Below are positions 6,928 through 26,580 of a DNA stretch of 32,000 nucleotides, in pieces. Each line of letters opens with the position of its first letter. The first letter of the stretch is position 1. A program made the position numbers and the translations under genes. The stretch is from Aliivibrio fischeri ES114. GTDB lineage: Bacteria > Pseudomonadota > Gammaproteobacteria > Enterobacterales > Vibrionaceae. The notes under the pieces were generated by a model. That model ran no database searches and had not been told where the DNA came from. It saw only the letters and a list, made by a program, of their open reading frames with translations. Location of the stretch: assembly GCF_000011805.1 (NCBI RefSeq), contig NC_006840.2; one strand, 5' to 3'.

Positions 6928-7932
6928 TTACTTACGTTTCTCTTTTAATTGTTCAATTACATATTCAGGCGCTACCTTTGCTAGCTCTTCTAAACAAGCA
7001 TCTGTTTTTTCATTTCCATAGCGTACATAAATATCACATACTGCATATAACTGCTCTGGCGAACCAGAAATTAAATACGCCTTTTCAAACGATTCAGTCG
7101 CTAATTTCACATCAATACTTTCTTGTAAAACACCATTCAAATACCAATAATAACTATTATTATCCGCTAATGTTGCTGCTGTCTGAATCGATTTAGCGGC
7201 GTCTTCTTTTTGATTTAAACGCACTTGAGTTAATGCTTTTGAATAAAATAAGCTCGGTTCTTTAGGTAATTGCTTTATACCTTGATTTAGCGTAACTAGC
7301 GCTTGTTCATCTTGATTTTGGCCACGGAAATTATCTGATAAATTCAACCATACTTCTGCATTTTCAGGTTCGGATTTAACTAATTTTTGATAAATAACAT
7401 CGGCTTTAGTCCACTCACCATGCCAGCGGTATATGTCTGCTAATTGCAGTTGAGTATCCTGTCTATTTTGCGATGTTAGAGTATCAACTAACTCTTTATA
7501 TACAGGTTCCATTTGAACCTGTTGTTCTGCCGTCATAGAACGATATTCACGCATTAAATTAATACCAGCAGCGAGACGAACACTCATTTCAGAATCACTC
7601 AATAACGGTGAAATCATTCTCCAACGATGAGATAACTTGTATAACTCTGATCCTGTAATTGCCGCTTCTCGGATAACCGGATTTGGATCTTTTAGCCCTC
7701 TAGCGACCGCAACCAAACTGTTTTGGTTAGGAAATCGAGCTAATTGGCGTAATGCATCTGCTCTATTTTCTATCGTTTCATTTTTATTTTGAGCCCTATA
7801 CGCTAATTCTTGCTCAGGGCTCATCTTTTGTGCTTGATTCACTGTCGGAGCTTGCTGAACACTGTCACTAGCAAATGAAGACGCAGAAAATCCCAATATG
7901 GATAACAAACTAATGCAGACTATTTTTTTCAT
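6928..7932 (-). CDS. Secreted HEAT/TPR-repeat protein, paralog of the C-terminal module of the octaheme cytochrome at 18002-20278
   Basis: Sec signal peptide MKKIVCISLLSILGFSASSFASD. A HEAT-like segment (ALRQLARFPNQNSLVAVARGLKDPNPVIREAA) is followed by TPR-like repeats. The protein is colinear over ~280 aa with the cytochrome C-terminus (RWRMISPLLSD/RWQIISPLLTD, YYWYLNG/QYWYVYG, SPEQLYAVCD...ACLEELAKVAP/NPQHLFAQCD...ACINELQKYAP). Confidence 0.8.
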   Translation of the reverse strand: MKKIVCISLLSILGFSASSFASDSVQQAPTVNQAQKMSPEQELAYRAQNKNETIENRADALRQLARFPNQNSLVAVARGLKDPNPVIREAAITGSELYKLSHRWRMISPLLSDSEMSVRLAAGINLMREYRSMTAEQQVQMEPVYKELVDTLTSQNRQDTQLQLADIYRWHGEWTKADVIYQKLVKSEPENAEVWLNLSDNFRGQNQDEQALVTLNQGIKQLPKEPSLFYSKALTQVRLNQKEDAAKSIQTAATLADNNSYYWYLNGVLQESIDVKLATESFEKAYLISGSPEQLYAVCDIYVRYGNEKTDACLEELAKVAPEYVIEQLKEKRK

Positions 7933-7985
7933 AAGGTACTCTTAAACGTACGATCTTAAAGATTAAATAATTAAAATTTAGATTA

Positions 7986-9302
7986 TTAAAACTTAGTAGG
8001 AAAAGCATTTTGGTGAACTTGCTGCATCTTCGCATCACTGTATTTACCGTGCTGAACAGGATTCCCTAGCATTTTCAATATATAAGCGATGGATTTATCA
8101 GCATGAGCAAAAAACTTCTTCCAACCTGCACACAGATAATTTAATCCAGGTTCACCATCACGTGTTTTAATAAAACGGTTTTTAGGACATTCACCATGAC
8201 ACGCAAATTTATATTCACACTTCTGACATTGAGTCGTTAACGTTTTTGATTTTGCAAAACCAAACTCTTGTTGCTTGCGGCTAAACGCTAATGTATCCAA
8301 CTCTTCATTATGAATATTTCCGATTTTATATTCAGGGTACACATAATGGTCACAAGCAAACACATCTCCATTGTGTTCCATTGCTAAGCCTTTTCCGCAA
8401 ATCTCACCTAATGTACATAATGGGTTTTTACGCCCCATCCATGTTTCAACACTGGCTTCAAAATACTGAACAAATACTTTACCTAGGTCATGCTGAGTCC
8501 ATTCATCAAATACAGCAATTAAGAAATTACCCCATGCTTCATCTGAAACACACCAAGGTTCCATAATGGATTCTTTATTACCTGGAATTAAACGTTTATC
8601 GCCTTGACGTAGCTGTGCTGCAATTTGCTCAGTTTGAGGAGCAACTGTTCTAAACGTTTTTTGCTCAACGATTGGAATAAACTGCATTTGTGGCGATTTC
8701 ACCACATCACGTAAGAATCGATATACCTCAAGAGGGTTTCGACTCGTTAAATTATTCACACACGTTAACGTGGCAAATTTCACATTATGTTTATGCAATA
8801 ATTCAACAGCGTTCATTACTTGCTTAAACGTACCGCGCCCCGCTTTGTTGGTGCGATAAGCATTGTGTAGCATTTCAGGTCCATCAATACTCAAACCAAC
8901 TAAAAAATTGTTTTCAGCAAGAAACTCACACCATTTATCGGTTAATAACGTACCGTTTGTCTGTAAATCATTAGAAATCAAGATCCCTTCAGGCTGATAT
9001 TTTTTTTGAAATTCAACAATTTTTTTAAAGTAATCAAGACCTAATAACGTCGGTTCACCACCTTGCCATGAGAAGATAATCTCTGGCGTGTTTTGTCCTT
9101 CAATATATTGACGAATATAAGTTTCAAGCGTTTCGTCATCCATTTGCGGTGAACAACCCTTTTTATACTCAAGTAAATCTTCTTTACTTAAGTAATAACA
9201 ATAAGAACAATCAATATTACATACAGCACCAATAGGCTTGGCCATAACATGTAATCGTTTTGATGCTTTACCTTGAAATTGTGGGCCTTGAGTAATGATC
9301 AT
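7986..9302 (-). CDS. Anaerobic sulfatase-maturating enzyme (radical SAM / SPASM, AslB/ChuR/AtsB type)
   Basis: Radical-SAM motif CNIDCSYC within HVMAKPIGAVCNIDCSYCYY, SAM-binding GGEPTL, and C-terminal SPASM cysteines including CQKCEYKFACHGEC (CX2CX5CX3C). RBS AGGA lies upstream of the ATG at 9302. Confidence 0.9.
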   Translation of the reverse strand: MIITQGPQFQGKASKRLHVMAKPIGAVCNIDCSYCYYLSKEDLLEYKKGCSPQMDDETLETYIRQYIEGQNTPEIIFSWQGGEPTLLGLDYFKKIVEFQKKYQPEGILISNDLQTNGTLLTDKWCEFLAENNFLVGLSIDGPEMLHNAYRTNKAGRGTFKQVMNAVELLHKHNVKFATLTCVNNLTSRNPLEVYRFLRDVVKSPQMQFIPIVEQKTFRTVAPQTEQIAAQLRQGDKRLIPGNKESIMEPWCVSDEAWGNFLIAVFDEWTQHDLGKVFVQYFEASVETWMGRKNPLCTLGEICGKGLAMEHNGDVFACDHYVYPEYKIGNIHNEELDTLAFSRKQQEFGFAKSKTLTTQCQKCEYKFACHGECPKNRFIKTRDGEPGLNYLCAGWKKFFAHADKSIAYILKMLGNPVQHGKYSDAKMQQVHQNAFPTKF

Positions 9303-9503
9303 ATTGATTCCTATTATTTTACGAATTTGGTTAAGTAGAACTTACCTAGCCAAAGAGAAAACCACCCTTATAGTTTTGCTGCTAAGTAAGTTCTAACTCT
9401 ATAATAAACCAAAAGAACTACTCTATTAGTTATATACGTTATTCCAATTTGGAATGTTAAGTTACTGTATGATAAACGTACAAAAATAACTGTTGAGGAT
9501 GTC

Positions 9504-10298: not shown

Positions 10299-10343
10299 AC
10301 TAACTAAAAGTCTTCATTCAAAATTAATTCTTCACAAATAAAA

Positions 10344-10373
10344 ACAGCGCCGAAAATTCAGCGCTGTTTGTTT
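10344..10373. terminator. Bidirectional rho-independent terminator
   Basis: A-run, stem CAGCGC/GCGCTG (10345-10350 / 10361-10366), then TTTGTTT. It lies between the convergent FGE-like and LysR genes and overlaps the LysR stop codon. Confidence 0.6.
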
Positions 10374-11286: not shown

Positions 11287-11364
11287 GGCTGATTCATCCT
11301 GATTTCACTTTATATAACTGAGCAGATGAAACAAGTGCAGTCCATCAGTTCTGTGTTGATTATC

Positions 11365-12675
11365 TTACTTTTTCGTTTTGCTTATTCGATACTTATTCAG
11401 CTGAGGCAAAGCTTTCTTAAATTTAATTATTTCACCTAATCGATATTTCGCCGTATCTCTACGATTAATTGCTTTCCACAACCGTTTAGATAGTGACGTT
11501 GTCACCTCTTCGTTTTGAAATTGTGTTGTTTCACTCTGCCATTCTTGCTTGCTTTCATACGCTTTGAGCTCAACGAGATGATCTGTTTCTCTTAATAAAC
11601 GATAAAGCAACATTCTAACTGTTCCCCATTCCTCTTGATTTACCGCTCTAGAATATACGAGCCATGCAGGAAGTGGATGAGTTTGATAATAACGCACGGT
11701 TTTAATAGCAGCGACGATAATAAGAAGAAGAATGAATACACAAACTGCGAATGGTTTCCAATATTCAATAAACCAAGAGCGCAAAGTGTGTGATACCGCA
11801 AAGGTTTGCCCTTCAATATTAATCGTTTTTAATTCACCTGCATCAACATCCCACCAAACTAACTCAAGAGCAGGAAACGTAACTTCTCCACCAGTTTGTA
11901 ATACATAAACTGAAGATTCTTCTCGTTGAGATAAATAGTCACCTCGAGTTTGTGTATCACTCAATTTAGGTGGTTGATTATAGGTTTGATAGTGCGTGCT
12001 TGATGTCGCTGGCAAAATCTCAGGGATCAACATTGCAAGTGTATCAGCCCCTTTAATCGTAATCGTACGAGTTATCGAATCGCCGGCTTCGAGTTCTGAA
12101 TTAGACGTATCCCATTTTTGTTGCACGGTAAAATCTAAACCAGACACCCATTGTTGTTTATCGTCAAGTAACCCAGACGGTTTAATTACTTTAAATGTTT
12201 GAGCTTGGGTATAAATGGTTCCTGAGACATTACCTACACCTTCTTTTGATACTTGCACTTTTACCGCCGCAGGAGGAATAACATAAGTACCTGCTTTTTG
12301 AGGATATAATGTCACTTCCCAGCGTTGGTGTGTCCAAGTTACTCCGTTTTTACGTTCTGTAAAATTAGTTGCAAGTTGATTACGTTGTTTAACTGCAACG
12401 TTGGGAATATCAATTGCAGCAATGCGAGTACCGCCTGTAAACCACCTTGGAGTAACCACTTCTATATACAAAATAATTTGTTGATTAATGGCATATGCTT
12501 TCTGCTCTTCATCTGTTTTTGATGGTTCACTTAACCACGTTTTAATCGAGACATTATCAGCACTTTCAAGTTTGTTCGCTGCATTGGATCTTGCACTGAA
12601 ACTTACCGTAATAAGCAGTACTATCATAAATACAAGAAGGTGTATTAAACGTCGTTTATCATTATGCTGAGACAT
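11365..12675 (-). CDS. batD: BatD-like (oxygen-tolerance family) membrane-anchored protein
   Basis: N-terminal signal/anchor, a large beta-rich exported domain and a C-terminal TM (FAVCVFILLLIIVAAI). It is the last gene of the MoxR-VWA operon, and its start overlaps the upstream stop (TAATG). Confidence 0.7.
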   Translation of the reverse strand: MSQHNDKRRLIHLLVFMIVLLITVSFSARSNAANKLESADNVSIKTWLSEPSKTDEEQKAYAINQQIILYIEVVTPRWFTGGTRIAAIDIPNVAVKQRNQLATNFTERKNGVTWTHQRWEVTLYPQKAGTYVIPPAAVKVQVSKEGVGNVSGTIYTQAQTFKVIKPSGLLDDKQQWVSGLDFTVQQKWDTSNSELEAGDSITRTITIKGADTLAMLIPEILPATSSTHYQTYNQPPKLSDTQTRGDYLSQREESSVYVLQTGGEVTFPALELVWWDVDAGELKTINIEGQTFAVSHTLRSWFIEYWKPFAVCVFILLLIIVAAIKTVRYYQTHPLPAWLVYSRAVNQEEWGTVRMLLYRLLRETDHLVELKAYESKQEWQSETTQFQNEEVTTSLSKRLWKAINRRDTAKYRLGEIIKFKKALPQLNKYRISKTKK

Positions 12676-14372: not shown

Positions 14373-15435
14373 GCTTTTCTCCTGCTTTTTTTGAAGAAGA
14401 TGAAAAATGACGTCTAATAGTGGCGAAACCAAAGGCAAACAAATACATCGCAACAATTAGCATTGCTGGGTATTGGTGAATTGACTGCTTTGGTCGGTAA
14501 GTCGTACTTTCATAAAGCTGAGGCTCTAACTCACCAATTTCATCATAAGCTTGTTCTAATTCATCACGGTTAATCGCCTGGAATGCTTTACCTCCAGACT
14601 CTTTAGCAACACGATTAATGATGTTCATATCCAATGCTTGCTCACCCACAGTTCGAGGATCACCCATTGCAATCATATGTATACGCACGTCTTTCGCTGC
14701 TGCAACTTTTGCGGCATCAATAGGTTCAACATAACTGCCAGTGTCGTTACCATCCGTTAAAACAATTGCGACTTTTTCTCGTGGTTTTGCATTTTCTTCT
14801 GCTGACGCTTTATCTTCGCTGCTCTGCTCAAACACTTTAATCGCAAGGCCGATAGCGTCACCTAGATGGGTACTTTGCCCTGCCATTGCAACGTCTGTTT
14901 GATTCAACAATTCAAGCCAAACGGATTGATCAGCCGTGAATGGCGTTTGTACAAAGGCGGCATCGCCAAATAAAATAAGTCCTAAACGATCCCCTTTACG
15001 TGTCTTAACAAAATCGGCTAATACTTCCTTTGTTGCTTCTAGACGTGAAATCTTCTTTACTGCGCCTAAATCTGACGATTGTTTAGAGACAAAATCTTGC
15101 TCAGCCATTGAACCAGATAAATCCACCACAACCATGACATCACGACCTAAACTTTCACGGGTTTGTGGCTCTCCTAATATCGTAGGCTTTGTTAAAGCAA
15201 AAATAAGCAGACACCACGACACAACCAAAAATGCTTTTTGCCATAAACTTGCACTTAATTGACTCGCACCTTCTGATGGTTCCTCATCTAAAGCTTTAAC
15301 CAATACATCAAAAAATGGCACTTTAATCGCTGATTGACGTGTTCGATATGCAGGTATAAACCAATATATTATCAGTGGTAAAGGAAGCATCCATAACCAA
15401 TATGGATTTGCTAATTCAAGTTGATCAAACGGCAT
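14365..15435 (-). CDS. batA: VWA-domain membrane protein (BatA-like)
   Basis: Two N-terminal TM helices, MIDAS motif DLSGS in VVVDLSGSMAEQDF, IVLTDGNDTGS, and a C-terminal TM. The start overlaps the upstream gene by 11 nt. Confidence 0.8.
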   Translation of the reverse strand: MPFDQLELANPYWLWMLPLPLIIYWFIPAYRTRQSAIKVPFFDVLVKALDEEPSEGASQLSASLWQKAFLVVSWCLLIFALTKPTILGEPQTRESLGRDVMVVVDLSGSMAEQDFVSKQSSDLGAVKKISRLEATKEVLADFVKTRKGDRLGLILFGDAAFVQTPFTADQSVWLELLNQTDVAMAGQSTHLGDAIGLAIKVFEQSSEDKASAEENAKPREKVAIVLTDGNDTGSYVEPIDAAKVAAAKDVRIHMIAMGDPRTVGEQALDMNIINRVAKESGGKAFQAINRDELEQAYDEIGELEPQLYESTTYRPKQSIHQYPAMLIVAMYLFAFGFATIRRHFSSSSKKAGEKHV

Positions 15436-15964
15436 AATCCTCTCCTTTTTTAATATCTTGGCTCGCCGTTTTTATATCTTTATGACTTTCTAACCAATCG
15501 ATACACAACGCAAATAAGGCTGCAATTTCTTGTTCATTTAATGCTTTTTGTGATTGAACTAATGAGCGCATCCATTTTTCACCTAATTCTGAATGAAATG
15601 TCTCTTTGTCATCGTTTCCATATGAATCAAGTGCCTTCAAAAAAGCATCTCCAAATTGATTAGAGCGACTCGGGTCGATATACACTAATACCGCTTTCAT
15701 CACTTCAAATATTTCATAACTGATAGATTGATTAGGTACTTGTGAATCTCGCAGTAATAAAATTACATCCAATGCTTCACGACGATAGCGATTTATCCAC
15801 CATCGTTTTAGCCATAGCACACTTTTGTAGACAATAAATGCAAGCAATACAAATGCGAGAATTTTCCATCCAATGGTCTGAGGAAACCAACTGACGTGTT
15901 CAGGAACCGTCACTTCACTTAATTTTTTTAATATATAACTGCTAGGTGGCTGATGTATGCTCAT
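15425..15964 (-). CDS. DUF4381-family membrane protein
   Basis: Pattern VSWFPQTIGWKIL, a TM segment, then RWWINRYRREAL matches the DUF4381 signature seen between DUF58 and VWA genes in MoxR operons. ATGA overlap with the DUF58 gene. Confidence 0.7.
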   Translation of the reverse strand: MSIHQPPSSYILKKLSEVTVPEHVSWFPQTIGWKILAFVLLAFIVYKSVLWLKRWWINRYRREALDVILLLRDSQVPNQSISYEIFEVMKAVLVYIDPSRSNQFGDAFLKALDSYGNDDKETFHSELGEKWMRSLVQSQKALNEQEIAALFALCIDWLESHKDIKTASQDIKKGEDYAV

Positions 15965-16902
15965 CGACGTCCTCCTATTGCACGCTTGAACTGCTCAATA
16001 TGAGATCCTGACGTATCCACTTCTATAGTAGGAAGTCCTTTTGCTGCCATTAATTGAATAAGTTGTTCTTTTTTCAATGACTGATGCTCAGTAAGTCCTT
16101 TGTTCGCTAAATCAAATTTTTTGGCATCATTTAGATTAATTTGAAAATCCCCATCACCAACAACCCATTCATTATTTAATGAAGGAAACATTGATTCGAA
16201 AGGATCAGAGATAAGAACACCAAGCACATCATTATGTTTTTGAAGGTGTTTTAAATGAGTAACATCATCAGGGGTTGCACCACTCCAATCACTCAAAATA
16301 ATAATCGTAGCTTCTTTGAGTTTTAAACGACCAAGCAGGGTGACAAATTGTGTAAAACTAACGGAATCAACATCGGTGCTTGTCACGTTTAAAGATTGAT
16401 TTGAACTTGCTAACAATTGCAATCGATGGAGCAAATCACCTTGAGAACGTTTTGGTGTCAACCAATGTAATTTCTCAGTTGCATTAATGACAAAACCAAC
16501 ACGATCACTGTCTTGCAAAATGCGCCATGCCGTTAAAGCGGCTAATTCCGCCGCAACAACCGATTTCATCGTATCGACCGATGAAAAAAACATACTACTG
16601 CGTTGATCAACACAGATAATAAAATTTCGATCTTTCTCTTCGGTATAAGAACGAACATGAGGTTTGCCTGTTCGCATGGTCACTTTCCAATCAAGATTTC
16701 GAATATCATCCCCTAATTGGTAGTGCCTTAACTCTTCAAAATTTAATCCGCGTCCACGAAATACTGAAGAGTGACGACCAGACAATGCCGTCCCTGATTT
16801 TAGGTTAGGAAGCAAACTAAAAAAACCAGCTTGAGACTGTAATTTTACCAGTTTGCTATATTCACAGTATATGCGTGCGTCTGTGCTTTTCTCTGTCATC
16901 AA
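15961..16902 (-). CDS. DUF58-family protein (MoxR-associated, VWA-like)
   Basis: Signature LRHYQLGDDIRNLDWKVTMRTGKPHVRSYTEEKDR. It lies immediately downstream (5-nt gap) of the MoxR ATPase. Confidence 0.85.
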   Translation of the reverse strand: MMTEKSTDARIYCEYSKLVKLQSQAGFFSLLPNLKSGTALSGRHSSVFRGRGLNFEELRHYQLGDDIRNLDWKVTMRTGKPHVRSYTEEKDRNFIICVDQRSSMFFSSVDTMKSVVAAELAALTAWRILQDSDRVGFVINATEKLHWLTPKRSQGDLLHRLQLLASSNQSLNVTSTDVDSVSFTQFVTLLGRLKLKEATIIILSDWSGATPDDVTHLKHLQKHNDVLGVLISDPFESMFPSLNNEWVVGDGDFQINLNDAKKFDLANKGLTEHQSLKKEQLIQLMAAKGLPTIEVDTSGSHIEQFKRAIGGRR

Positions 16903-16907
16903 AAGCC

Positions 16908-17921
16908 CTACCCAATAACAACGTGATCCAATAATTCATTTATCACTTGCTCTTGTGTCACTCCATCCGCTAAAGCGTCATAACTTAACGTAACACGATG
17001 GCCGAGAACTAAGTATGCCATTGCTCGAATATCATCGGGCTCTACATAATCTCTACCTTGTAACCAAGCATAGGCACGGGCACATTTATCTAATGCAATA
17101 GATGCTCGTGGACTTGAACCAACTTCAACCCAACGAGATAAATTAGATTCTGCGTAACGCTCAGGCTTACGTGTCGCCATCACTAACGCCACAATATAGC
17201 GCTCACTGATTTCTGAAACTTCAATTTTGGACAGCTCCGCTCTCGCTTGCATAACTACCGACGGATCTAATTGAATAGCATCAGGCTTAGGAATCGTGTC
17301 ATTTTCTGAACACTCCTTATCCGATGGCTTGTTATCCAGATTTTCTTCGCTTCTTACTAAACGAATAATATCTAGCTCAGCATCATCATCAGGATAATCA
17401 ACAGATACTTTCATAATAAAGCGGTCCATTTGCGCTTCTGGCAATGGATACGTTCCTTCTTGCTCTACGGGGTTTTGTGTTGCTAGTACCATAAATAAAT
17501 CAGGCAAAGTATGTGTTCTATCACCAACGGTGATCGTTCCTTCAGCCATTGCCTCTAAAAGCGCTGCTTGAACTTTCGCAGGCGCCCTATTGATTTCGTC
17601 CGCAAGAACGATACTGTTAAAAATAGGGCCAGGTTGGAAATTCAATTGTGGTTTACCATTTTGCTCTTGATAGACCTCTGTTCCGGTAACATCAGAAGGC
17701 AAAAGATCTGGAGTAAACTGAATACGACCAAATGATGTATGTAAATTATCAGCCAACGATTTTACTGAGCGTGTTTTTGCCGTACCAGGCAAACCTTCAA
17801 GCAAAACATGACCTTGAGTAAGTAACCCAATAACTAATGAACGAACAACATGAGCTTGACCAATAACTGATTGCTCAACCTGTGACATAAGTGTATTTAT
17901 TGCTTGTTGCGTTTGGTTCAT
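16908..17921 (-). CDS. MoxR-family AAA+ ATPase
   Basis: Walker A GLPGTAKT, Walker B/sensor LADEINRAPAKVQAALLEAM, then ATQNP.E..G.YPLPEAQ.DRF. RBS GGAGGA. Confidence 0.92.
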   Translation of the reverse strand: MNQTQQAINTLMSQVEQSVIGQAHVVRSLVIGLLTQGHVLLEGLPGTAKTRSVKSLADNLHTSFGRIQFTPDLLPSDVTGTEVYQEQNGKPQLNFQPGPIFNSIVLADEINRAPAKVQAALLEAMAEGTITVGDRTHTLPDLFMVLATQNPVEQEGTYPLPEAQMDRFIMKVSVDYPDDDAELDIIRLVRSEENLDNKPSDKECSENDTIPKPDAIQLDPSVVMQARAELSKIEVSEISERYIVALVMATRKPERYAESNLSRWVEVGSSPRASIALDKCARAYAWLQGRDYVEPDDIRAMAYLVLGHRVTLSYDALADGVTQEQVINELLDHVVIG

Positions 17922-17978
17922 GTTTCCTCCTAAACCCGATACGATTCGTTATCCATATTCATTGTAAGTAAATTAACT

Positions 17979-17993
17979 ATAACTATTGGTTAT
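17979..17993. promoter_or_regulatory. Dyad ATAACTATTGGTTAT (T-N11-A, LysR-type box) upstream of moxR
   Basis: Perfect ATAAC/GTTAT inverted repeat with an N5 spacer, 57 nt upstream of the moxR ATG. A minus-strand TACAAT -10 candidate lies at 17966-17961. It is one of four related copies in the window. Confidence 0.6.
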
Positions 17994-18001
17994 ACACATC
18001 A

Positions 18002-20278
18002 TTAATGGGGGCTTACCTGATTAAGACGTTGGTTTAATGAATTAATCATATTCGCAGGGGCGTATTTCTGTAGTTCATTAATACATGCTTTTGCTTTATT
18101 TGACTGATATTTCAATAACATGTCACATTGTGCAAATAAGTGCTGAGGGTTACCACTAATACCAAATGCACGCCCTAATGCATCGGCCGCTTGCTTACCA
18201 TTAAAGGATTCCATTGATAACCCATAAACATACCAATATTGTGCATTTTGTTTTTCTATCTGAGTTGCTTGTTTAAATCGATCTGCTGCTTCCGCTTTTT
18301 GATTCAAACGTAAAAGTGATAATCCTGCACTATAACGAAGTGCTCCTGAGTTAGGTTGCGCTTTAATGCCCTTTCTTAATATCTCGTATCCCTTATTTTC
18401 ATTACCTTGAGAGCGATATAAATCAGCAAGATTGACGTAACTATTCACAAAATACGGTTCTATCTCGATTGCGCCTAAATAAGCTTCTTCTGCTTTAACT
18501 AGCTCTCCCTGAGCACGGTACACATTACCTAAATTTGTTCGACCAAAGCCCCTGTCTGAATTAAATTTTTGAATCTCGATGTATTCATCTAGTACCGGTG
18601 CCAACTGCTCTCTTTGTAATGGATTCAATTCAGGCCAATAAGCAGCTAAAGCGCCTGCTGTCTCCGTCCTAATCGCTAATACAGGATCGGTTAATAAAGG
18701 AGAAATAATTTGCCAGCGATCAAATGCCTCATAGCCAGCAGAACCTTGAATGGCTCCTAACCTTATTAGCTCATCATTATTTTTAACCGCTCGTCCTAAA
18801 GCCACTAAGGTATTTTTACTCGGGAAAGCGCTTAGTCTCTGTAATGCAGAGCCTCTGATTATTCCTGCTTGTTTCGCATCTTGAGCGGTATAAGACAGTG
18901 CATCACCGGCTCCTCGATACTGAATATCTGATGCATAGAATGCCACGGCAAAGTGTTGTTGGTTTCTATACGGAGAATCAGGAAACCATTGTCCAACTTG
19001 CTCGTCAGCCCAAACATCATCTTTATCGTCATGACATTGGGTACAAACGTTCGGAGTACCAATGTTCTTACTAAGATCTAGTCTTGGTATTTGCCAGCTG
19101 TGATCACGCCTTGCATCAACTCCCATATAAACCGTTTCAGGCATATGGCACGTCGTACATTGAGAGGCTTCCGTATTAGCTAAATGAAAAGTGTGTTTCT
19201 CTGGTGTGTATTCTGATGCAATATGACATTGACTGCATATTGCTTCTTCTGGAATGCTTAATTTTGTCGTGTGTGGGTCATGACAATTTGTACATGTCAC
19301 CCCTTTTTTGGCCATTTTTGACTGCATAAATGAACCATAAACATAATCTTCATCATAAATTTGACCATCATTATGATAAAGCTCTGGAGTAATTAGACTT
19401 GGAAGGTAGCTATCCAGTAATGAACGCTCCTCGAGATCACCTTTTGTATGCGCTTGCGCCTCATTTAATTGAGTTCTACGACTATGGCACTGAGCACATA
19501 CAGTAATTTGATCCGTTTTGCGAATGGCTTTTGGTTGAAGAATGGATGAACCTTGTTTAAATACCCACTCTTTTACTGATTTGCTCAGATCACGATCAAA
19601 GCCATAATGAAGTCCAGTAGAACCCTCTTGCTTTTTACTCCATTTAATATGCTCACTAGCAGGGCCATGACACGCTTCACAACTGACATTTATTTCTGAC
19701 CATGAAGTCTCATAACTATTTTTCTCTGAATCGTAATTTTTTTGTACATTGGTTGAGTGGCAATCCGCGCACATGAAATTCCAATTTTGTCCTGTATTAG
19801 TCCAATAAAATTCGTCGGTTTTTTCCATATCAGGGTATAAATGATACCAACGTTGGCCACCCTGACTTTTGTGTCTTGAATCCCAAGCAAATGGAATTAA
19901 TTGAATTCGCCCATCGTCAAATTCAACCATGTACTGTTGTAGCGGTTCGAACCCAAATGTATAACTTATTTTATAATCATGAAATTGACCATCAGGCCCT
20001 TCAATATTGACCCAATACTCTTTGCCTTTTTTGAAAAATCGGTTAGTTTTACCTTCAAACTCAAAAGTAGCATCATCAAAATTGCCCAATACACTACTTT
20101 TATCCGCATGCTTCATCGCCATGTCATGATCCGATCCCTGCCAAGCATCAACGGCTTCTTTATGACAATCAATACAAGATTCGCTACCAATAAAATCAGC
20201 AGAAAATACAGTTGGTGAAAACAACATAATATTCACCCACATTACCAAAAATACGTAGGTAAGTTTTTTCTTAGTCAT
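18002..20278 (-). CDS. Octaheme c-type cytochrome fused to a C-terminal HEAT/TPR module (exported)
   Basis: Eight CxxCH motifs (CIDCH, CADCH, CEACH, CAQCH, CTNCH, CSQCH, CTTCH, CTQCH) in the N-terminal ~450 aa. Signal sequence MTKKKLTYVFLVMWVNIMLFSPTVFSA. C-terminal ~300 aa of HEAT/TPR repeats. I prefer the ATG at 20278 (RBS AAGGA) over the track start at 20317. Confidence 0.85.
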   Translation of the reverse strand: MTKKKLTYVFLVMWVNIMLFSPTVFSADFIGSESCIDCHKEAVDAWQGSDHDMAMKHADKSSVLGNFDDATFEFEGKTNRFFKKGKEYWVNIEGPDGQFHDYKISYTFGFEPLQQYMVEFDDGRIQLIPFAWDSRHKSQGGQRWYHLYPDMEKTDEFYWTNTGQNWNFMCADCHSTNVQKNYDSEKNSYETSWSEINVSCEACHGPASEHIKWSKKQEGSTGLHYGFDRDLSKSVKEWVFKQGSSILQPKAIRKTDQITVCAQCHSRRTQLNEAQAHTKGDLEERSLLDSYLPSLITPELYHNDGQIYDEDYVYGSFMQSKMAKKGVTCTNCHDPHTTKLSIPEEAICSQCHIASEYTPEKHTFHLANTEASQCTTCHMPETVYMGVDARRDHSWQIPRLDLSKNIGTPNVCTQCHDDKDDVWADEQVGQWFPDSPYRNQQHFAVAFYASDIQYRGAGDALSYTAQDAKQAGIIRGSALQRLSAFPSKNTLVALGRAVKNNDELIRLGAIQGSAGYEAFDRWQIISPLLTDPVLAIRTETAGALAAYWPELNPLQREQLAPVLDEYIEIQKFNSDRGFGRTNLGNVYRAQGELVKAEEAYLGAIEIEPYFVNSYVNLADLYRSQGNENKGYEILRKGIKAQPNSGALRYSAGLSLLRLNQKAEAADRFKQATQIEKQNAQYWYVYGLSMESFNGKQAADALGRAFGISGNPQHLFAQCDMLLKYQSNKAKACINELQKYAPANMINSLNQRLNQVSPH

Positions 20279-20424
20279 ATATATCCTTATACATCTTGAC
20301 CATAATTCTGATTTCAAAAGTAAACAAATAGCGATAAGTTAGATATAGTTCACTTGTTGTAAACTTTCCATTTAACTCATTGATTTTGCGTGTTCCCTCT
20401 TAATTTCTATTGCAATGCTTTTAT

Positions 20425-20450
20425 ATAAAAAGGGGCTCCGAAGAGCCCTC
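20425..20450 (-). terminator. Rho-independent terminator after the leftward sulfatase gene
   Basis: Stem GGGCTC/GAGCCC with a CGAA loop. The T-run is on the minus strand (plus-strand A-run 20427-20431). Confidence 0.7.
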
Positions 20451-20478
20451 TTAATTAGAACTGTCATGATAAATTAAG

Positions 20479-22026
20479 TTACTTACTATGAGGCTGTTGA
20501 AGTTTTTCCATTACCTGATCAAGACTGAAGCTTGCCGCTTTTTGACGAGGTGGGAATTCTTCAAATGTTTCTAAGTATTTTCCTACATAAGCTTGCGCTG
20601 GTACGAACATATAAGCGTGGTCTAACAACCAGTCATAATAAGTATTCGACGTTACATCAGCGACTTCATATGGGTCCATACGTAAGTTAAACAGTTTAGG
20701 CACACGTAATGTTACAAACGGTTCAGCCCAAATTTGAAGCGTGCCCTTCACACGTTGCTCCATAAATACGGCTTTCCACTTGTTATAACGAAGTGCAGCT
20801 AAATCACCATCATCCGTGAAGTAGAAAATTTCTTCACGACGGCCTTCTTTTTCTTTACCCGTTAAATAAGGTAAGAAGTTATAACCATCTAAGTGATTTT
20901 TAAAACTCTTATTACCAAGTTTTGTTCCTTTTTTCAGATCATCTTTAATATGATCATTACCAGCAGCTGCTGCAAAAGTTGGTAGCCAATCCATGTGGTG
21001 CATAATTTCATTCGATACTACACCTGGTTCAATTTTTCCTGGCCAACGCACCATTGCAGGAACACGATATGCCCCTTCCCAGTTTGTATTTTTCTCACTA
21101 CGGAACGGGGTTGTACCCGCATCCGGCCATGAGTTCATATGAGGGCCATTATCGGTAGAATAGAAAACAATGGTGTTATCTTTAATACCTAGTTTATCCA
21201 CTGTTTTTAAAAGTTCACCAACGTGGTTATCGTGCTCAACCATACCATCAGCATAGTTACTAATGCCTGTTGAACCTTGTAATTCAGGTTTTACGTGAGT
21301 TCTAAAGTGCATACGCGTGGCGTTCCACCATACAAAGAATGGCTTATCCGCTTTTACCGCTCGTCCCATAAAATCAATAGCTGCAGAAACCGTTTCATCA
21401 TCCACCGTTTCCATACGCTTACGAGTTAGAGGACCTGTATCTTCAATTTTTCCATCAGCAAAAGATTTAATTACACCACGAGGGCCAAATTTTTTGCGGA
21501 ATTCAGGATCTTTTGGATAGTCAATATTTTCAGGCTCTTCTTCAGCATTTAGGTGGTAAAGGTTACCAAAAAATTCGTCAAAGCCATGTGCTGTAGGAAG
21601 GAATTCGTCTTTATCACCAAGGTGGTTTTTACCAAATTGCCCTGTCATGTATCCCATAGGTTTAAGTACTTCAGCGATCGTTGCATCTTCAGCTTGTAGA
21701 CCGATATCTGCACCAGGTAATCCAACTTTACTTAGACCTGTACGTAGAACACTTTGTCCTGTGATAAAAGTTGATCGACCAGCGGTACATGATTGCTCAC
21801 CATAATAATCAGTAAACATCATGCCTTCTTTAGCAATACTATCGATATTTGGTGTTTTATATCCCATTAAACCAAAAGTATACGCACTGATATTAGACTG
21901 ACCGATATCATCGCCCCAAATAACCAGAATATTTGGCTTCTCTGCTGCTAATGTATACCCCGAAGCTCCCATTAACACTGCACTTAGTATTGTTAATCTA
22001 CGCTTCGTTCCTTTTTTGACTTCCAT
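20479..22026 (-). CDS. Exported Cys-type sulfatase (arylsulfatase family), paralog 1
   Basis: Signal peptide, metal-binding IWGDDIG, active-site SCTAGRSTFITG (Cys codon 21787-21789) and GKNHLGD. I prefer the start at MEVKKGTKRR (22026, RBS AGGAG) over the track start at 22110. Confidence 0.9.
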   Translation of the reverse strand: MEVKKGTKRRLTILSAVLMGASGYTLAAEKPNILVIWGDDIGQSNISAYTFGLMGYKTPNIDSIAKEGMMFTDYYGEQSCTAGRSTFITGQSVLRTGLSKVGLPGADIGLQAEDATIAEVLKPMGYMTGQFGKNHLGDKDEFLPTAHGFDEFFGNLYHLNAEEEPENIDYPKDPEFRKKFGPRGVIKSFADGKIEDTGPLTRKRMETVDDETVSAAIDFMGRAVKADKPFFVWWNATRMHFRTHVKPELQGSTGISNYADGMVEHDNHVGELLKTVDKLGIKDNTIVFYSTDNGPHMNSWPDAGTTPFRSEKNTNWEGAYRVPAMVRWPGKIEPGVVSNEIMHHMDWLPTFAAAAGNDHIKDDLKKGTKLGNKSFKNHLDGYNFLPYLTGKEKEGRREEIFYFTDDGDLAALRYNKWKAVFMEQRVKGTLQIWAEPFVTLRVPKLFNLRMDPYEVADVTSNTYYDWLLDHAYMFVPAQAYVGKYLETFEEFPPRQKAASFSLDQVMEKLQQPHSK

Positions 22027-22130
22027 ATAAACTCCTGTTTCCATTGATAAAAAGAGCATCATTAAAGGTATAGTACATAAACCTAAAACTAACAACGGAA
22101 TATACAACAATAATTTTACTTTTTAACTAC

Positions 22131-22145
22131 ATAACCACTAGTTAT
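22131..22145. promoter_or_regulatory. Dyad ATAACCACTAGTTAT (reverse complement ATAACTAGTGGTTAT) centred in the divergent sulfatase intergenic region
   Basis: It lies 104 nt from the leftward sulfatase start codon and 105 nt from the rightward one. An extra ATAAC half-site sits at 22153-22157. Confidence 0.6.
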
Positions 22146-22250
22146 GAACTTAATAACCAATTTCAGTACATCGTTTTTTCCGTATTTGCAGGATAATGCA
22201 GATCCCTTTCCAATATTATCTAGCTGAAATCATTCCTTCAGGAGATAGCG

Positions 22251-23801
22251 ATGAACAAAATAGTAAAAAAAACCGCCATTGCAACAGGCCTTGCTTTATC
22301 AGGGATCCAAGTAGCTTATGCTGCTGCTCAACCGAATATCCTTGTCATTTTTGGTGATGATATTGGTTATGGAAACATCTCTGCTTATAACCAAGGTATG
22401 CTCGGCTACCAAACGCCAAATATCGATAGCATTGCAAATGATGGGGCTCTCTTTACGTCTTATTACGGTCAACAATCTTGTACCGCTGGTCGCTCAGCTT
22501 TCATCACTGGTCAAATGCCCGTCCGTACAGGTCTAACTAAAGTTGGATTACCAGGAGCAAAACAGGGTTTACAAGCACAAGACATCACTCTTGCTCAAAC
22601 TTTAAAAGACCAAGGTTACGTTACTGGTCAATTTGGTAAAAACCACCTTGGTGACCGCGATGACATGCTGCCAACCAACCATGGTTTTGATGAATTTTTT
22701 GGTAACCTTTACCACCTAAATGCAGAAGAAGAACCAGAAAATGCAGACTACCCTAAAGACCCAACCTTCCGTAAAAACTTTGGGCCTCGTGGCGTTATTC
22801 ATTCATACGCAGATGGAAAAATTGAAGATACAGGTCCTCTAACTCGTAAACGCATGGAAACGGTTGATGAAGAAACGATGGATGCGGCGATGGACTTTAT
22901 GACCAGAGCAGTAAAAGCAGACAAACCTTTCTTCACTTGGTACAACGCAACTCGAATGCATATCAAAACTCACGTCAAAGCCGAGAATTCAGGAAAAACC
23001 GGACTTGGTGATTATGCAGATGGTATGGTTGAACATGACAACATTGTTGGAGACCTACTTGATAAAGTCGATGATCTAGGCATCAGTGATAACACTGTCA
23101 TCATTTACACAACCGATAACGGTCCAATGAATGCGACATGGCCTGATGCGGCCTTCAGTCCATTCCGTGGTGAGAAAAATACAGGTTGGGAAGGCGGTTT
23201 CCGTGTACCTGCAGTCATTAAATGGCCTGGACACATCAAACCTGGCACAAAACTTAATGGCATGTTTGCTGGTGAAGACTGGCTACCAACACTAACAGCA
23301 ATCGCTGGTAATAAAGACATTAAGCAAGAGCTACTTAAAGGCTACAAAGCGGATAATGGCAAAACGTATAAAAACCATCTAGACGGTTATAACCAAGTTA
23401 ACTACCTAACAGGTAAATCAAAAGAAAGTGCTCGCCAAGAGTTCTTCTACTGGTCTGATGATGGTGAATTACTGGCTATGCGTGATGGTCGCTGGAAAAT
23501 GCACTTCAAGATCCAAGAAAACCAAGGTTGGAAAGTATGGACTCGTGAATTTACAAATCTACGTATTCCTATGATTTTCGATCTACAAGTAGATCCATAC
23601 GAAAAAGCAGATCAAGGATTTGGATATGATTCATGGGTTTTTGATCATGTATTTTTGCTAGTCCCTACTCAAGCAAAAGTAGCAAAAATGATTGAAAGCT
23701 TTAAAGAGTTCCCACCACGTCAAGAAATTCCAAGCTTCTCTGTCGACAAAGTAATGGAACAGATGAAAAACATGGAAAAAGTAGCTAACGCTAGTAAATA
23801 A
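22251..23801 (+). CDS. Exported Cys-type sulfatase (arylsulfatase family), paralog 2
   Basis: Signal peptide MNKIVKKTAIATGLALSGIQVAYA, IFGDDIG, SCTAGRSAFITG (Cys codon 22479-22481) and GKNHLGD. By eye about 70% identical to paralog 1. RBS AGGAG. Confidence 0.92.
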   Translation: MNKIVKKTAIATGLALSGIQVAYAAAQPNILVIFGDDIGYGNISAYNQGMLGYQTPNIDSIANDGALFTSYYGQQSCTAGRSAFITGQMPVRTGLTKVGLPGAKQGLQAQDITLAQTLKDQGYVTGQFGKNHLGDRDDMLPTNHGFDEFFGNLYHLNAEEEPENADYPKDPTFRKNFGPRGVIHSYADGKIEDTGPLTRKRMETVDEETMDAAMDFMTRAVKADKPFFTWYNATRMHIKTHVKAENSGKTGLGDYADGMVEHDNIVGDLLDKVDDLGISDNTVIIYTTDNGPMNATWPDAAFSPFRGEKNTGWEGGFRVPAVIKWPGHIKPGTKLNGMFAGEDWLPTLTAIAGNKDIKQELLKGYKADNGKTYKNHLDGYNQVNYLTGKSKESARQEFFYWSDDGELLAMRDGRWKMHFKIQENQGWKVWTREFTNLRIPMIFDLQVDPYEKADQGFGYDSWVFDHVFLLVPTQAKVAKMIESFKEFPPRQEIPSFSVDKVMEQMKNMEKVANASK

Positions 23802-23814
23802 CATGAATAAGATT

Positions 23815-23840
23815 TAGGGCTCATATGGGCCCTATTTTGC
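23815..23840 (+). terminator. Weak candidate terminator or attenuator between sulfatase 2 and the AraC gene
   Basis: Stem TAGGGC/GCCCTA with an 8-nt loop followed by only TTTT. It is short and could permit read-through. Confidence 0.35.
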
Positions 23841-23869
23841 TATTTATAAGATACATAAAGGTGAAACCC

Positions 23870-24775
23870 ATGCAGACAAATGCAGACTTTACATTTGATG
23901 AGTTCAGTGAAAAATTATGGTCAATATTTCATGGACAAGCATTGATCACAAAATTTAGTTTTCCATTAAATGACGCCTGTTTCACGTTTAAATCTCTAAA
24001 ACGAAATAATGTAAATTTTTACCTATTTGAAAGCCCTGATCCATTATCTTTATTCAGTTTTCACCTTCCTTCTACATCACAGCCAAAAACATTGTTATTA
24101 CTCGATGTAGATAATGCTGGAATGCTTTTCAATGGAATTCTATGTGAGGAGCATCAATTTGCGTTAATTTCAGAAAAAAGCCAGCAACCATTTTGTTTAC
24201 AAATACCAGCTCACAGCCCTATTTTAGTATGTGATATCAATACCGATAACAAACAGTTTCATCAACTTTGCGGTAGTTTAGTACCTGTTGGGATTGATAT
24301 AAAATACGCAGAAGAATTAAAAATTGCCGTTCGTAATGCAAATAATATGTTTCCAAATAATCATTCCAATGTAGGTGCAACCTTATTGATGCATATTGTT
24401 GAGCTTTTATCTTTACATCCAATTCCAATGCGTCGCCAAGCATTAATGGGAAGAAGTCGTTTACCAAGACGCAATTTTATTCCTAAATGCATTGATTATA
24501 TGATGGAGATGTCCTCAACTGAGGCAATTAAACAACTCTCCAAAGAACGAAATATTTCAGAAAAAACCATTAGAAATGCATTTAAAGAAACAACAGGGTT
24601 CACCCCTAAAGAGTTTGAACAAATCAGTAAACTTTTTGCATTTCGTCGGGCCTTAAAGCAACCAGATATTAAAACTGTTTTTGAAGCAGCTATTGCGAGT
24701 GATGTGTATCGCTGGTCTCGTTATGCTAGTCGTTATTTTAAGATTTTTAATGAGTTACCAATTCAAACTCTTTGA
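23870..24775 (+). CDS. AraC/XylS-family transcriptional regulator
   Basis: C-terminal double HTH (ISEKTIRNAFKETTGFTPKEF ... SRYASRYFKIFNELP). The N-terminal ~190 aa has no recognisable ligand domain. I prefer the start at MQTNADF (23870) over 23825. Confidence 0.75.
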   Translation: MQTNADFTFDEFSEKLWSIFHGQALITKFSFPLNDACFTFKSLKRNNVNFYLFESPDPLSLFSFHLPSTSQPKTLLLLDVDNAGMLFNGILCEEHQFALISEKSQQPFCLQIPAHSPILVCDINTDNKQFHQLCGSLVPVGIDIKYAEELKIAVRNANNMFPNNHSNVGATLLMHIVELLSLHPIPMRRQALMGRSRLPRRNFIPKCIDYMMEMSSTEAIKQLSKERNISEKTIRNAFKETTGFTPKEFEQISKLFAFRRALKQPDIKTVFEAAIASDVYRWSRYASRYFKIFNELPIQTL

Positions 24776-24855
24776 GAAAGCTCTCAATTCACCTGAGTCA
24801 CAAGCGTGAACAAATAAAGCAAAATACCTATAGATTCAATAAGATAAATAACAAG

Positions 24856-24870
24856 ATAACTTTTGGTTAT
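24856..24870. promoter_or_regulatory. Dyad ATAACTTTTGGTTAT upstream of the third sulfatase gene
   Basis: It lies 85 nt upstream of the ATG at 24956 and differs by one base from the moxR-proximal copy. An extra ATAAC half-site sits at 24848-24852. Confidence 0.6.
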
Positions 24871-24955
24871 AAAGTCTATAAAGCGACGATTTAAAAATAT
24901 TTATTTATGATCTCCGCGAATTAAACACGACTATAACTATTATTTGGAGTTATTT

Positions 24956-26527
24956 ATGGGTAATCATTTAAGTAAGATTGCTGTTGGAGTTGGTCTGCTT
25001 GCAACCTCTAGTGCAGCAATGGCAGCAGCGCAACCTAACATACTTGCTATTTTTGGTGATGATGTTGGTTATTGGAACATTAGCGCCTACAACCAAGGAA
25101 TGATGGGTTATAAAACACCTAACATCGATCGTATCGCGAATGAAGGTGCATTGTTCACTGATCACTATGGCCAACAATCTTGTACTGCTGGACGTGCTGC
25201 TTTCATTACAGGTCAAGAACCTTTCCGTACGGGTCTATTAACCATTGGCATGCCAGGTTCTGATCATGGTATTCCTGATTGGGCTCCAACCATTGCCGAT
25301 CTTCTTAAAGATCAAGGCTACATGACGGCACAATTTGGTAAAAACCACCTTGGTGACCAAGATAAACATCTTCCAACCAATCACGGTTTTGACGAATTCT
25401 TCGGTAACCTTTACCACCTAAATGCCGAAGAAGAGCCAGAAACTTACTACTACCCTAAAGATCCTGAGTTCCGTAAAAATTATGGTCCACGTGGTGTAAT
25501 TAAATCTTATGCTGATGGTAAGATTGAAGATACCGGCCCAATGACTCGTAAGCGTATGGAGCACGCAGATGAAGAGTTCTTAGATTCTTCATTAGCATTT
25601 ATGGAAAAAGCGGTAAAAGCGGATAAACCTTTCTTTATCTGGCACAACACAACTCGCATGCACGTTTGGACTCGTCTACAAGAAAAATACCAAGGTAAAT
25701 CAGGCGTAAGTATTTATGCTGATGGTATGCTTGAGCACGATGACCAAGTTGGTATCCTACTTGATAAACTGGATGAGCTTGGTGTAGCAGATAACACGAT
25801 CGTTATTTATTCAACCGATAACGGTGCAGAAACAGTAACATGGCCTGACGGCGGTGCTACACCATTCTATGGTGAAAAAGGCACAACATGGGAAGGTGGT
25901 ATGCGTGTACCACAACTTGTTCGTTGGCCGGGAACTATTAAACCTGGAACAAAAATCAATGAAATGATGGCGCACCAAGATTGGCTTCCAACTTTACTTG
26001 ATGCTGCTGGTGTTCCAAACGTAAAAGAAAAACTTGCTAAAGGCTATAAAGCCAACGGTAAAGAGTTCAAAGTTCATATCGATGGTTACGATTTCAAACC
26101 ATTCTTTGAAGGAAAAGTAGATAAAGGTCCTCGTGAATCACTGCTTTACTTCACTGCAAATGGTGAGTTGAATGCCGTTCGCTGGCAAGATTGGAAACTG
26201 AACTTCGCAATAATGGAAGGTAATATTTCTGATGCAGTTCGTTTGTCACCAAACTGGCCTCAAATCATCCACCTACGTGCGGACCCATTTGAAAAAGCAC
26301 CGCATGAATCAGGCATGTACTTACGTTGGATGGCAGATAACATGTGGTTATTCGTACCAATGCAAGACGTATTAGCTGAGTTCTTTAATACTCTACCTGA
26401 TTACCCAATGCAAATGAGTACTCAAATGAACCCTGCAGCTATCAGTGCACAATCACTTGGCTTAAAAGCGAAAATGCAACAGCTAGATAAGCTTCAAGCT
26501 CAAATGAATAAACTAAATGCTAAATAG
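24956..26527 (+). CDS. Exported Cys-type sulfatase (arylsulfatase family), paralog 3
   Basis: Signal peptide MGNHLSKIAVGVGLLATSSAAMA, IFGDDVG, SCTAGRAAFITG (Cys codon 25181-25183) and GKNHLGD. RBS GGAG lies upstream of the ATG at 24956; the track TTG start at 24944 is less likely. Confidence 0.9.
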   Translation: MGNHLSKIAVGVGLLATSSAAMAAAQPNILAIFGDDVGYWNISAYNQGMMGYKTPNIDRIANEGALFTDHYGQQSCTAGRAAFITGQEPFRTGLLTIGMPGSDHGIPDWAPTIADLLKDQGYMTAQFGKNHLGDQDKHLPTNHGFDEFFGNLYHLNAEEEPETYYYPKDPEFRKNYGPRGVIKSYADGKIEDTGPMTRKRMEHADEEFLDSSLAFMEKAVKADKPFFIWHNTTRMHVWTRLQEKYQGKSGVSIYADGMLEHDDQVGILLDKLDELGVADNTIVIYSTDNGAETVTWPDGGATPFYGEKGTTWEGGMRVPQLVRWPGTIKPGTKINEMMAHQDWLPTLLDAAGVPNVKEKLAKGYKANGKEFKVHIDGYDFKPFFEGKVDKGPRESLLYFTANGELNAVRWQDWKLNFAIMEGNISDAVRLSPNWPQIIHLRADPFEKAPHESGMYLRWMADNMWLFVPMQDVLAEFFNTLPDYPMQMSTQMNPAAISAQSLGLKAKMQQLDKLQAQMNKLNAK

Positions 26528-26542
26528 TAATATCTAAAACTA

Positions 26543-26580
26543 AAACGCCCCGAGTGAATATTCACTCGGGGCGTTTTTTT
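26543..26580. terminator. Bidirectional rho-independent terminator
   Basis: A-run, 14-bp GC-rich stem ACGCCCCGAGTGAA/TTCACTCGGGGCGT, then T7. It lies between the convergent sulfatase 3 and NifW-like genes. Confidence 0.9.

Follow-up and report, generated by a model that had tools for sequence, protein, structure and literature searches.

In this study, we analysed a 15-bp interrupted dyad in a 32-kb stretch of the Aliivibrio fischeri ES114 genome (32,000 nucleotides; hereafter the window), where it accompanies a moxR-DUF58-DUF4381-VWA-VWA-batD-lysR operon and three sulfatase genes, here called sulfA, sulfB, and sulfC. The dyad is probably the high-affinity recognition site of the LysR-type transcriptional regulator (LTTR) whose gene ends this operon, and the regulation probably has the signs proposed below. 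We predict an undescribed local regulon made up of sulfC, the anaerobic sulfatase maturase operon (anSME-TPR), and moxR-bat-lysR, to which sulfA and sulfB are added in A. fischeri. Coordinates of all features are given in Table 1.

Exact matches to ATAAC-N3-TGGTTAT were found at four positions of the window (17979, plus strand; 22131, minus strand; 24856 and 26337, plus strand; sites 1 to 4), and the relaxed pattern ATAAC-N5-GTTAT recovered the identical four sites and no extra one, with 0.02 expected. None of 100 dinucleotide-preserving shuffles contained even one full match to the stricter pattern (mean 0.00). A first-pass annotation of the window had listed the same four copies, with no other ATAAC-N5-GTTAT, and had considered them unlikely to arise by chance; our scan and both expectations agree. 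Its distances were also correct, site 1 lying 57 nt from the moxR ATG (17921) within the 80-nt gap beyond the cytochrome stop codon (18002), site 2 lying almost midway between the sulfA ATG (22026; 104 nt away) and the sulfB ATG (22251; 105 nt away), site 3 lying 85 nt from the sulfC ATG (24956), and site 4 lying inside sulfC. Allowing up to two mismatches gave no additional intergenic dyad in the window. The heptamer TGGTTAT/ATAACCA by itself is commoner in the window than expected (20 vs 5.7). Several of its copies fall in conserved coding blocks common to the three sulfatase paralogues (e.g., GTTATAACCATC at 20878 and 23381), which would inflate any by-eye sense of half-site enrichment.

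For the comparative survey, homologues of the cytochrome were aligned and 80 loci with 10-kb flanks were collected, one genome per species; contigs of Vibrio vulnificus, Photobacterium damselae, and the Harveyi clade were added through the LysR orthologue, and all loci were mapped by tblastn. The conserved order in Vibrionaceae is sulfC (-), divergent from sulfA (+) and the cytochrome gene (+), followed by moxR, DUF58, DUF4381, VWA, VWA, batD, and lysR (+). The dyad recurs in Aliivibrio, Photobacterium, and Vibrio at two positions, in the sulfC/sulfA intergenic region and directly upstream of moxR. Hits of at least 11 bits to a position weight matrix (PWM) across the 1.7 Mb of loci comprised 59 upstream of moxR, approximately 60 on the sulfC side (including 50 intergenic regions between sulfC and sulfA and 4 between sulfC and an AraC-like gene), and approximately 25 elsewhere. 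The consensus is a 15-bp palindrome, ATAAC-[C/T]-A-[A/T]-T-[A/G]-GTTAT (ATAAC-Y-A-W-T-R-GTTAT), that is, an interrupted 5-5-5 dyad in which the T at position 2 and the A at position 14 form a T-N11-A box. The ten half-site positions were set by the search pattern that gathered the sites, and only the PWM hits, at about 120 places at the moxR and sulfC promoters, are independent of that pattern. The TGG that the first-pass annotation had included in the core turned out to be only one orientation of a variable flank across orthologues. Its suggestion to look for the motif in related Vibrionaceae with a PWM gave a clear answer, as the moxR and sulfC sites are kept across three genera.

The sites move with moxR and sulfC when loci are rearranged. 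The dyad stays beside moxR in loci where a lysR2-sulfB-anSME block follows the cytochrome gene (L020, L030, L032, L066, L078, and V. vulnificus L082), and in two loci (L033 and L069) the neighbouring sulfatases are gone and the dyad and lysR remain. Harveyi-clade loci (L030 and related) are among those in which this block lies between the cytochrome gene and moxR.

The distance from the dyad to the predicted core promoter is fixed at both positions. In all 50 unique moxR contexts, TAnnnT stands exactly 12 bp beyond the dyad, and the hexamer of A. fischeri (Table 1) is replaced in other loci by TAGGAT, TAGAAT, or TAAGAT. As only 30-60 nt are left before the ATG, we read this hexamer as the -10 element, which would place the moxR dyad at about -39 to -25, with its centre near -32, in the -35 position; no good -35 element was seen at the moxR promoter. 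The layout upstream of sulfC, which is the same in all genera, runs from the dyad through AA-n-C-r-C (6 bp), TATAAA, gcGACr, and 17 bp to TAnnnT, and in 37 of the 51 unique sulfC/anSME-type contexts TAnnnT lies 35 bp beyond the dyad (6 + TATAAA + gcGACr + 17). With gcGACr read as a weak -35 element, the sulfC dyad would be centred near -55, and the TATAAA box would occupy -41 to -36. The transcription starts predicted in this way are close to 17954 (minus strand) for moxR and 24918 (plus strand) for sulfC. The promoter assignments rest on hexamers conserved at fixed spacing, and the positions are predictions. Further, just upstream of the moxR dyad, four Splendidus-clade loci (L014, L017, L018, and L068, approximately 12200-12320) carry 2-4 tandem units of approximately 21 bp with caATTATCAcg, which may be additional sites for a regulator or the product of a small repeat expansion.

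In the sequences surveyed, outside the sulfC side, the composite GTTATAA-N4-TATAA occurs solely in the intergenic region between the divergent FGE and anSME genes, facing anSME. The anSME promoter reads GGTTATAA-N4-TATAAC-aagcc-17 bp-TAnnAT in L036 and L082-L087 (Vibrio and Photobacterium), and that of V. diabolicus (L061) has a full dyad; the A. fischeri window has a degenerate module of the sulfC type at this place. The anSME and HEAT/TPR genes (6928..9302, minus strand) form a probable third target operon. Upstream of lysR itself, no full dyad is conserved across loci. Lineage-specific half-sites (..AGTTATATA.AGTG in Aliivibrio/Photobacterium and gcaaactttAGTTAT in the Splendidus clade) and one 14.9-bit site in A. 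logei stand there, and they are suggestive, not conserved.

The most telling case is P. damselae, which has neither sulfA nor the cytochrome gene and in which one dyad lies between the divergent sulfC and moxR...lysR units. This single dyad is followed by agccac-TATAAG-gcgac on one side and by 12 bp plus TAAGAT on the other, so that both layouts are intact, and the arrangement corresponds to a predicted classical divergent LTTR architecture. We regard the dyads at sites 1-3 as genuine cis-regulatory sites.

Site 2 has a narrower distribution. It is intact in A. fischeri (L002) and A. logei (L003) only and degenerate in L007 and L031, and these are the only four dyad-bearing loci in which sulfB and the AraC-like gene are present as an insertion. 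The candidate sulfA -10 hexamer on one side of site 2 and the AATAAC box on the other would make it a bidirectional version of the moxR-type and sulfC-type layouts; a consensus scan offers an alternative sulfA promoter at 22126-22099. The earlier proposal that the sites tie moxR/bat to all three sulfatases therefore holds for sulfC in three genera, and for sulfA and sulfB, through site 2, in the A. fischeri/A. logei lineage alone.

Site 4, which had been counted as a fourth regulatory copy, is a coding by-product. It encodes ADNMWLF, a peptide invariant in 55 of 57 SulfC orthologues; of these 57, no more than 9 keep the DNA dyad, third codon positions drifting freely. We rejected an intragenic operator here, given that synonymous changes break the dyad in most orthologues and that the site has the lowest PWM score of the four.

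The distribution of the regulator follows that of the dyad. Among the loci that could be scored, a LysR orthologue and the moxR dyad were both present in 47 and both absent in six; no locus had the LysR orthologue and lacked the moxR dyad, and in three the dyad was present and LysR was not seen in range. The six loci with neither (L052, L053, L070, L074, L077, and L080) belong to V. renipiscarius, V. ichthyoenteri, three Colwelliaceae, and Litorilituus. Among the three exceptions, Photobacterium carnosum (L008) keeps both dyads intact, a 564-amino-acid open reading frame (19165-20859, minus strand) replaces lysR and most of the FGE gene, and sulfC is missing too; the regulator was probably lost here by a recent deletion. 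The other two, V. harveyi (L037) and V. tetraodonis (L050), are covered for only approximately 3.2 kb after batD. In L086 and V. jasicida (L087), an inserted ATP-synthase operon leaves lysR approximately 8 kb beyond batD, and in L047, a relative of L050, lysR is 2.8 kb downstream of batD; in L037 and L050 it probably lies beyond the sequence covered. The insertion in L086 and L087 (2374-9185) is a complete second F-type ATP synthase operon (approximately 7 kb) with a deaminase gene, and it uncouples lysR from the moxR operon. In the window the regulator gene is found in cis, lysR ending the moxR operon with site 1 at the operon promoter; the Harveyi clade is an exception to this order.

By sequence, the LysR protein is LeuO/BsrA/DntR-like. 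LeuO and BsrA were its best NCBIfam matches, but no named equivalog of NCBIfam reached its cutoff, and we therefore rejected an assignment to LeuO (NF007063; 193.6 bits vs a cutoff of 262) or BsrA (188.4 vs 480). Among the at least 120 homologues listed, all were labelled as LysR-family without a specific name or were unlabelled, and all labelled ones were from Vibrionaceae; the V. parahaemolyticus orthologue was among the matches listed. The closest solved relatives are the LysR-type structures 2uye/1uth/5ae5, which we take to be DntR, and the LeuO effector domain 6gz0. The helix-turn-helix domain is more conserved than the remainder of the protein (62% vs 35% of positions at least 90% conserved), and its SQPAVS helix is invariant. 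Covariation between this domain and operator variants was uninformative, both being essentially invariant. The nomination of the LysR gene after batD as the prime candidate for binding the dyad gains from the co-occurrence (47 vs 0), the P. damselae layout, and the fixed promoter geometry.

We propose that LysR would bind the dyad at the moxR, sulfC, and anSME promoters. At sulfC, the dyad near -55 and the TATAAA box abutting the weak -35 element have the layout of a recognition site plus an activation site, and an LTTR tetramer bound to its co-inducer would activate transcription; anSME-TPR, which has a weaker version of the sulfC-type module, would be activated in this way too. At moxR, bound LysR would cover the -35 region and most likely restrain its own operon (negative autoregulation), to whose transcription read-through from the cytochrome gene may add. 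In the A. fischeri lineage, the sulfB-AraC insertion would have created the extra copy, site 2. That LysR binds the dyad is our inference, as are the signs of regulation and both the existence of an inducer and its identity, and everything past the binding of the dyad is read from position.

Several points weigh against this proposal. The correlation between LysR and the dyad represents few independent events, namely a single clade with a loss (L052/L053) plus Colwelliaceae as outgroup, and relatedness inflates the counts. Neither a dyad at -55, where the textbook position is -65, nor an isolated one at -32 tells activation from repression. The argument from autoregulation fails in the Harveyi clade, where lysR lies outside the moxR operon. 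All promoter positions are predictions, regulation is read from sequence alone, and a consensus sigma-70 scan called neither the moxR nor the sulfC promoter, as both have weak -35 elements. Lastly, the motif survey covered the window and the 1.7 Mb of orthologous loci, and an unlinked regulator with further sites elsewhere in the genome is a real alternative. The dyad would then be a genuine operator bound by a regulator encoded elsewhere, e.g., a dimeric factor that is global or responds to sulfur or redox state, and the linked LysR would control something else. A palindrome with 10-bp half-site spacing suits many dimeric helix-turn-helix families, and both the confinement of the motif to the locus, judged from locus sequences only, and the small number of events behind the LysR co-occurrence leave room for such a factor. 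We nevertheless consider it rather unlikely: the dyad is absent in all six loci without LysR and present in all 47 with it, the motif is a T-N11-A box that stands in a classical divergent LTTR layout in P. damselae, and only the approximately 25 scattered PWM hits fall outside the target promoters.

Control of the three sulfatases by the AraC-like protein, named in the first-pass annotation as the alternative regulator, through binding to the dyads is very improbable. Its gene lies between sulfB and sulfC and adjoins sites 2 and 3; however, it is confined to L002, L003, L007, and L031, and the moxR and sulfC dyads are kept in more than 50 loci without it, on which ground we rejected it as a shared regulator. 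Its HTH_18 match is also under the Pfam cutoff, and sites of the AraC family are usually direct repeats. Hardly any weight can be given to the reading that the four copies arose by chance or from the AT-rich composition of the DNA, belong to a mobile repeat, or form a terminator or other RNA hairpin. The excess of TGGTTAT, partly in coding blocks of the sulfatase paralogues, and the coding origin of site 4 fit it, whereas the shuffles and the conservation across genera at fixed promoter distances do not, and it is the half-site sequence that is conserved rather than pairing kept by compensatory change. A mobile or repeat element was rejected as there is no longer repeat around the sites, the repeats of the region reflecting sulfatase paralogy (71-75% nucleotide identity). 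RNA structure was rejected likewise: the predicted hairpins have energies of -2.4 to -6.7 kcal/mol, and z against shuffles is 0.84 at site 1, -2.13 at site 2, and -0.53 at site 3, so that sites 1 and 3 fold no better than shuffles and site 2 somewhat better, still weakly. An Rfam search gave no match, and a terminator scan made no call at them. Taken as a whole, the first-pass view that one regulator ties moxR/bat to the sulfatases keeps its comparative part, a shared conserved operator, and loses site 4 and the AraC option.

Table 1 Features of the A. fischeri window discussed in the text
Feature	Coordinates	Strand	Remarks
HEAT/TPR protein	6928-7932	-	paralogue of cytochrome C-terminus (34% identity)
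anSME, anaerobic sulfatase maturase	7986-9302	-	radical-SAM/SPASM; TIGR03942, 494.8 bits vs 349.45 cutoff
Degenerate sulfC-type module upstream of anSME	9398..9446	-	GGAATAAC-gta-TATAAC ... TATTAT
FGE-sulfatase gene	9504-10298	+	Pfam/NCBIfam
LysR-type regulator (LeuO/BsrA/DntR-like)	10372-11274	-	HTH_1 and LysR_substrate domains
moxR-DUF58-DUF4381-VWA-VWA-batD operon	11365-17921	-	Pfam
Predicted moxR -10 hexamer TACAAT	17961..17966	-	12 bp downstream of site 1
Site 1, candidate operator at moxR promoter	17979..17993	.	ATAACTATTGGTTAT; moxR-ward reading ATAACCAATAGTTAT; exact match; PWM 24.0 bits
Decahaem cytochrome c with C-terminal TPR	18002-20278	-	
sulfA (sulfatase)	20479-22026	-	Pfam Sulfatase
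Candidate sulfA -10 TAAAAT	22113..22118	-	12 bp from site 2, moxR-type layout; in L002, not in L003; uncertain
Site 2, candidate operator between divergent sulfA/sulfB	22131..22145	.	lineage-specific; exact match; PWM 19.5 bits
AATAAC box, sulfB side of site 2	22152..22157	+	counterpart of TATAAA/TATAAC box; 6-bp spacing as at sulfC and anSME
sulfB (sulfatase)	22251-23801	+	
AraC-like gene	23825-24775	+	HTH_18 weak, 23.8 bits vs 33.6 cutoff
Site 3, candidate operator at sulfC promoter	24856..24870	.	ancestral and conserved; exact match; PWM 21.9 bits
Predicted sulfC core promoter	24877..24911	+	TATAAA 24877-24882; -35-like GCGACG 24883-24888; 17-bp spacer; -10 TATGAT 24906-24911
sulfC (sulfatase), ancestral target gene	24956-26527	+	Pfam Sulfatase; orthologues divergent from sulfA or moxR
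Site 4, coding by-product within sulfC	26337..26351	+	PWM 15.3 bits, lowest of four

The gene identities given by the first-pass annotation agree with Pfam and NCBIfam. The cytochrome shares 96% identity, and the LysR protein 97-99%, with proteins of A. fischeri, in keeping with that species or a very near relative as the source. The moxR operon is of the MoxR/VWA 'Bat' type, with AAA_3, DUF58, VWA proteins, and BatD in one operon (AAA_3/bpMoxR 206, DUF58 106, DUF4381 91, VWA_2 63 and 58, and BatD 38 bits), and the sulfatases are not choline sulfatases (75 bits vs a cutoff of 433). Terminator-like hairpins follow sulfA (20448-20433, minus strand), sulfB (23815-23834), sulfC (26542-26577), and lysR (10369-10342, minus strand), the first of them parting sulfA from the cytochrome gene; the terminator scan of the window found no hairpin in the cytochrome-moxR gap and none in the batD-lysR gap. 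The cytochrome gene may rely on its own promoter or on read-through from sulfA, and its transcripts may continue into moxR. In Vibrio and Photobacterium, the regions upstream of sulfA (L014-L024, L062, L064, etc., approximately 8100-8200) contain CRP-like TGTGA-N6-TCACA sites (that of L064 reads tgtgatggctatcaca). The sulfA-cytochrome unit may thus be under catabolite control, independently of the dyad.

Divergent LTTR regulons combine a T-N11-A recognition site with a promoter-proximal activation site, for example those of CatR/BenM, CbbR, MetR (TGAA-N5-TTCA), and GcvA (CTAAT-N5-ATTAG), and in the textbook arrangement the recognition and activation sites lie near -65 and -35, respectively, relative to the activated promoter. 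The present system is similar in its 5-5-5 T-N11-A dyad, in the predicted combination of a strong distal site with a box abutting a weak -35 element at the target, in the overlap of this dyad with the predicted promoter of the regulator's own unit, and, in P. damselae, in the divergence of the target and the regulator operon. It differs in that the regulator gene closes an operon of seven genes and is not a solo divergent gene, and in that the predicted recognition centre is near -55, not -65. The operator is also duplicated in most Vibrionaceae, because sulfA and the cytochrome gene lie between sulfC and moxR. By sequence, the LeuO/BsrA/DntR-NahR-like LTTRs are closest to the present LysR, yet with scores under the cutoffs.

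LTTR control of the use of sulfate esters is known from Pseudomonas regulators of the SftR/SdsB type. Like these and the choline-sulfate regulator (TIGR03418), the present regulator is a LysR-family protein linked to sulfatase genes; unlike TIGR03418, of which it is a weak partial match (48.5 bits vs 324.8), its predicted regulon adds a MoxR/VWA operon and anSME. The operon resembles the 'Bat' (aerotolerance) operons of Bacteroides, Leptospira, and Borrelia in uniting MoxR, DUF58, two VWA proteins, and BatD, and differs from them in its terminal LTTR gene and in its place amid sulfatases, FGE, anSME, and a decahaem cytochrome-TPR gene. That no MoxR/Bat-sulfatase regulon had been described, as the first-pass annotation supposed, accords with our literature search for links of MoxR/Bat with sulfatases or LysR, which gave nothing relevant among the matches listed; a search combining deca-heme, sulfatase, and Vibrio found no papers, and one for the motif 15-mers found no paper. 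Papers on the 'arylsulfatase cluster' of V. vulnificus place it in genomic region XII and mention neither MoxR, nor the present LysR, nor the motif. In a V. parahaemolyticus transcriptome, the arylsulfatase vpa0680 was induced during HeLa infection, and regulon information was not given.

Outside Vibrionaceae, the synteny of sulfatase, (FGE), decahaem cytochrome, moxR, DUF58, VWA, VWA, and BatD is found in Colwelliaceae, Litorilituus, Cellvibrionaceae, and Shewanella (L067, L070, L073, L074, L077, L080, and L081; approximately 6000-19000). None of these loci has a LysR orthologue or the ATAAC dyad, which indicates that the functional module is older than the LysR regulator. A related imperfect dyad, TAAACTTTTAGTTAA, stands at the equivalent position before moxR in Litorilituus (L077, approximately 12150-12165) and Colwellia (L080, approximately 12210-12225) and may be the operator of a different regulator. 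Two loci (L070 and L074) have a LysR protein of 29-31% identity encoded divergently from sulfA.

The HEAT/TPR protein next to anSME is paralogous to the C-terminal part of the decahaem cytochrome (34% identity over approximately 290 residues, E 2e-56), and in Colwellia and Cellvibrionaceae loci FGE lies directly upstream of the cytochrome gene. With a TPR paralogue after anSME and FGE beside the cytochrome, each maturation route seems to be paired with the same TPR module, which could serve as a client-binding adaptor. We tentatively raise the possibility, doubtful at present, that MoxR-DUF58-DUF4381-VWA-VWA-BatD and the decahaem cytochrome-TPR protein form a dedicated periplasmic system for sulfatase maturation or activation, switched by LysR together with the client sulfatases and anSME. 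The hints for it are the reach of the synteny into Colwelliaceae and other Alteromonadales and the paralogy of the anSME-associated TPR protein with the C-terminal domain of the cytochrome. Such a system could, for example, feed electrons to a periplasmic FGE, or the MoxR/VWA pair could load a metal or cofactor.

If true, the maturation reading would give the poorly understood Bat-type MoxR/VWA operons a defined client. On its own, the predicted regulon is an ordinary, undescribed local one of the LysR type, and its value lies in linking a Bat-type operon with sulfatases and their maturase, next to a conserved decahaem cytochrome-TPR gene. The predicted regulon spans many Vibrionaceae, including V. 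vulnificus and P. damselae. Its operator is defined precisely enough to serve as a reporter for the inducer, and the link between MoxR/VWA and sulfatase maturation is testable.

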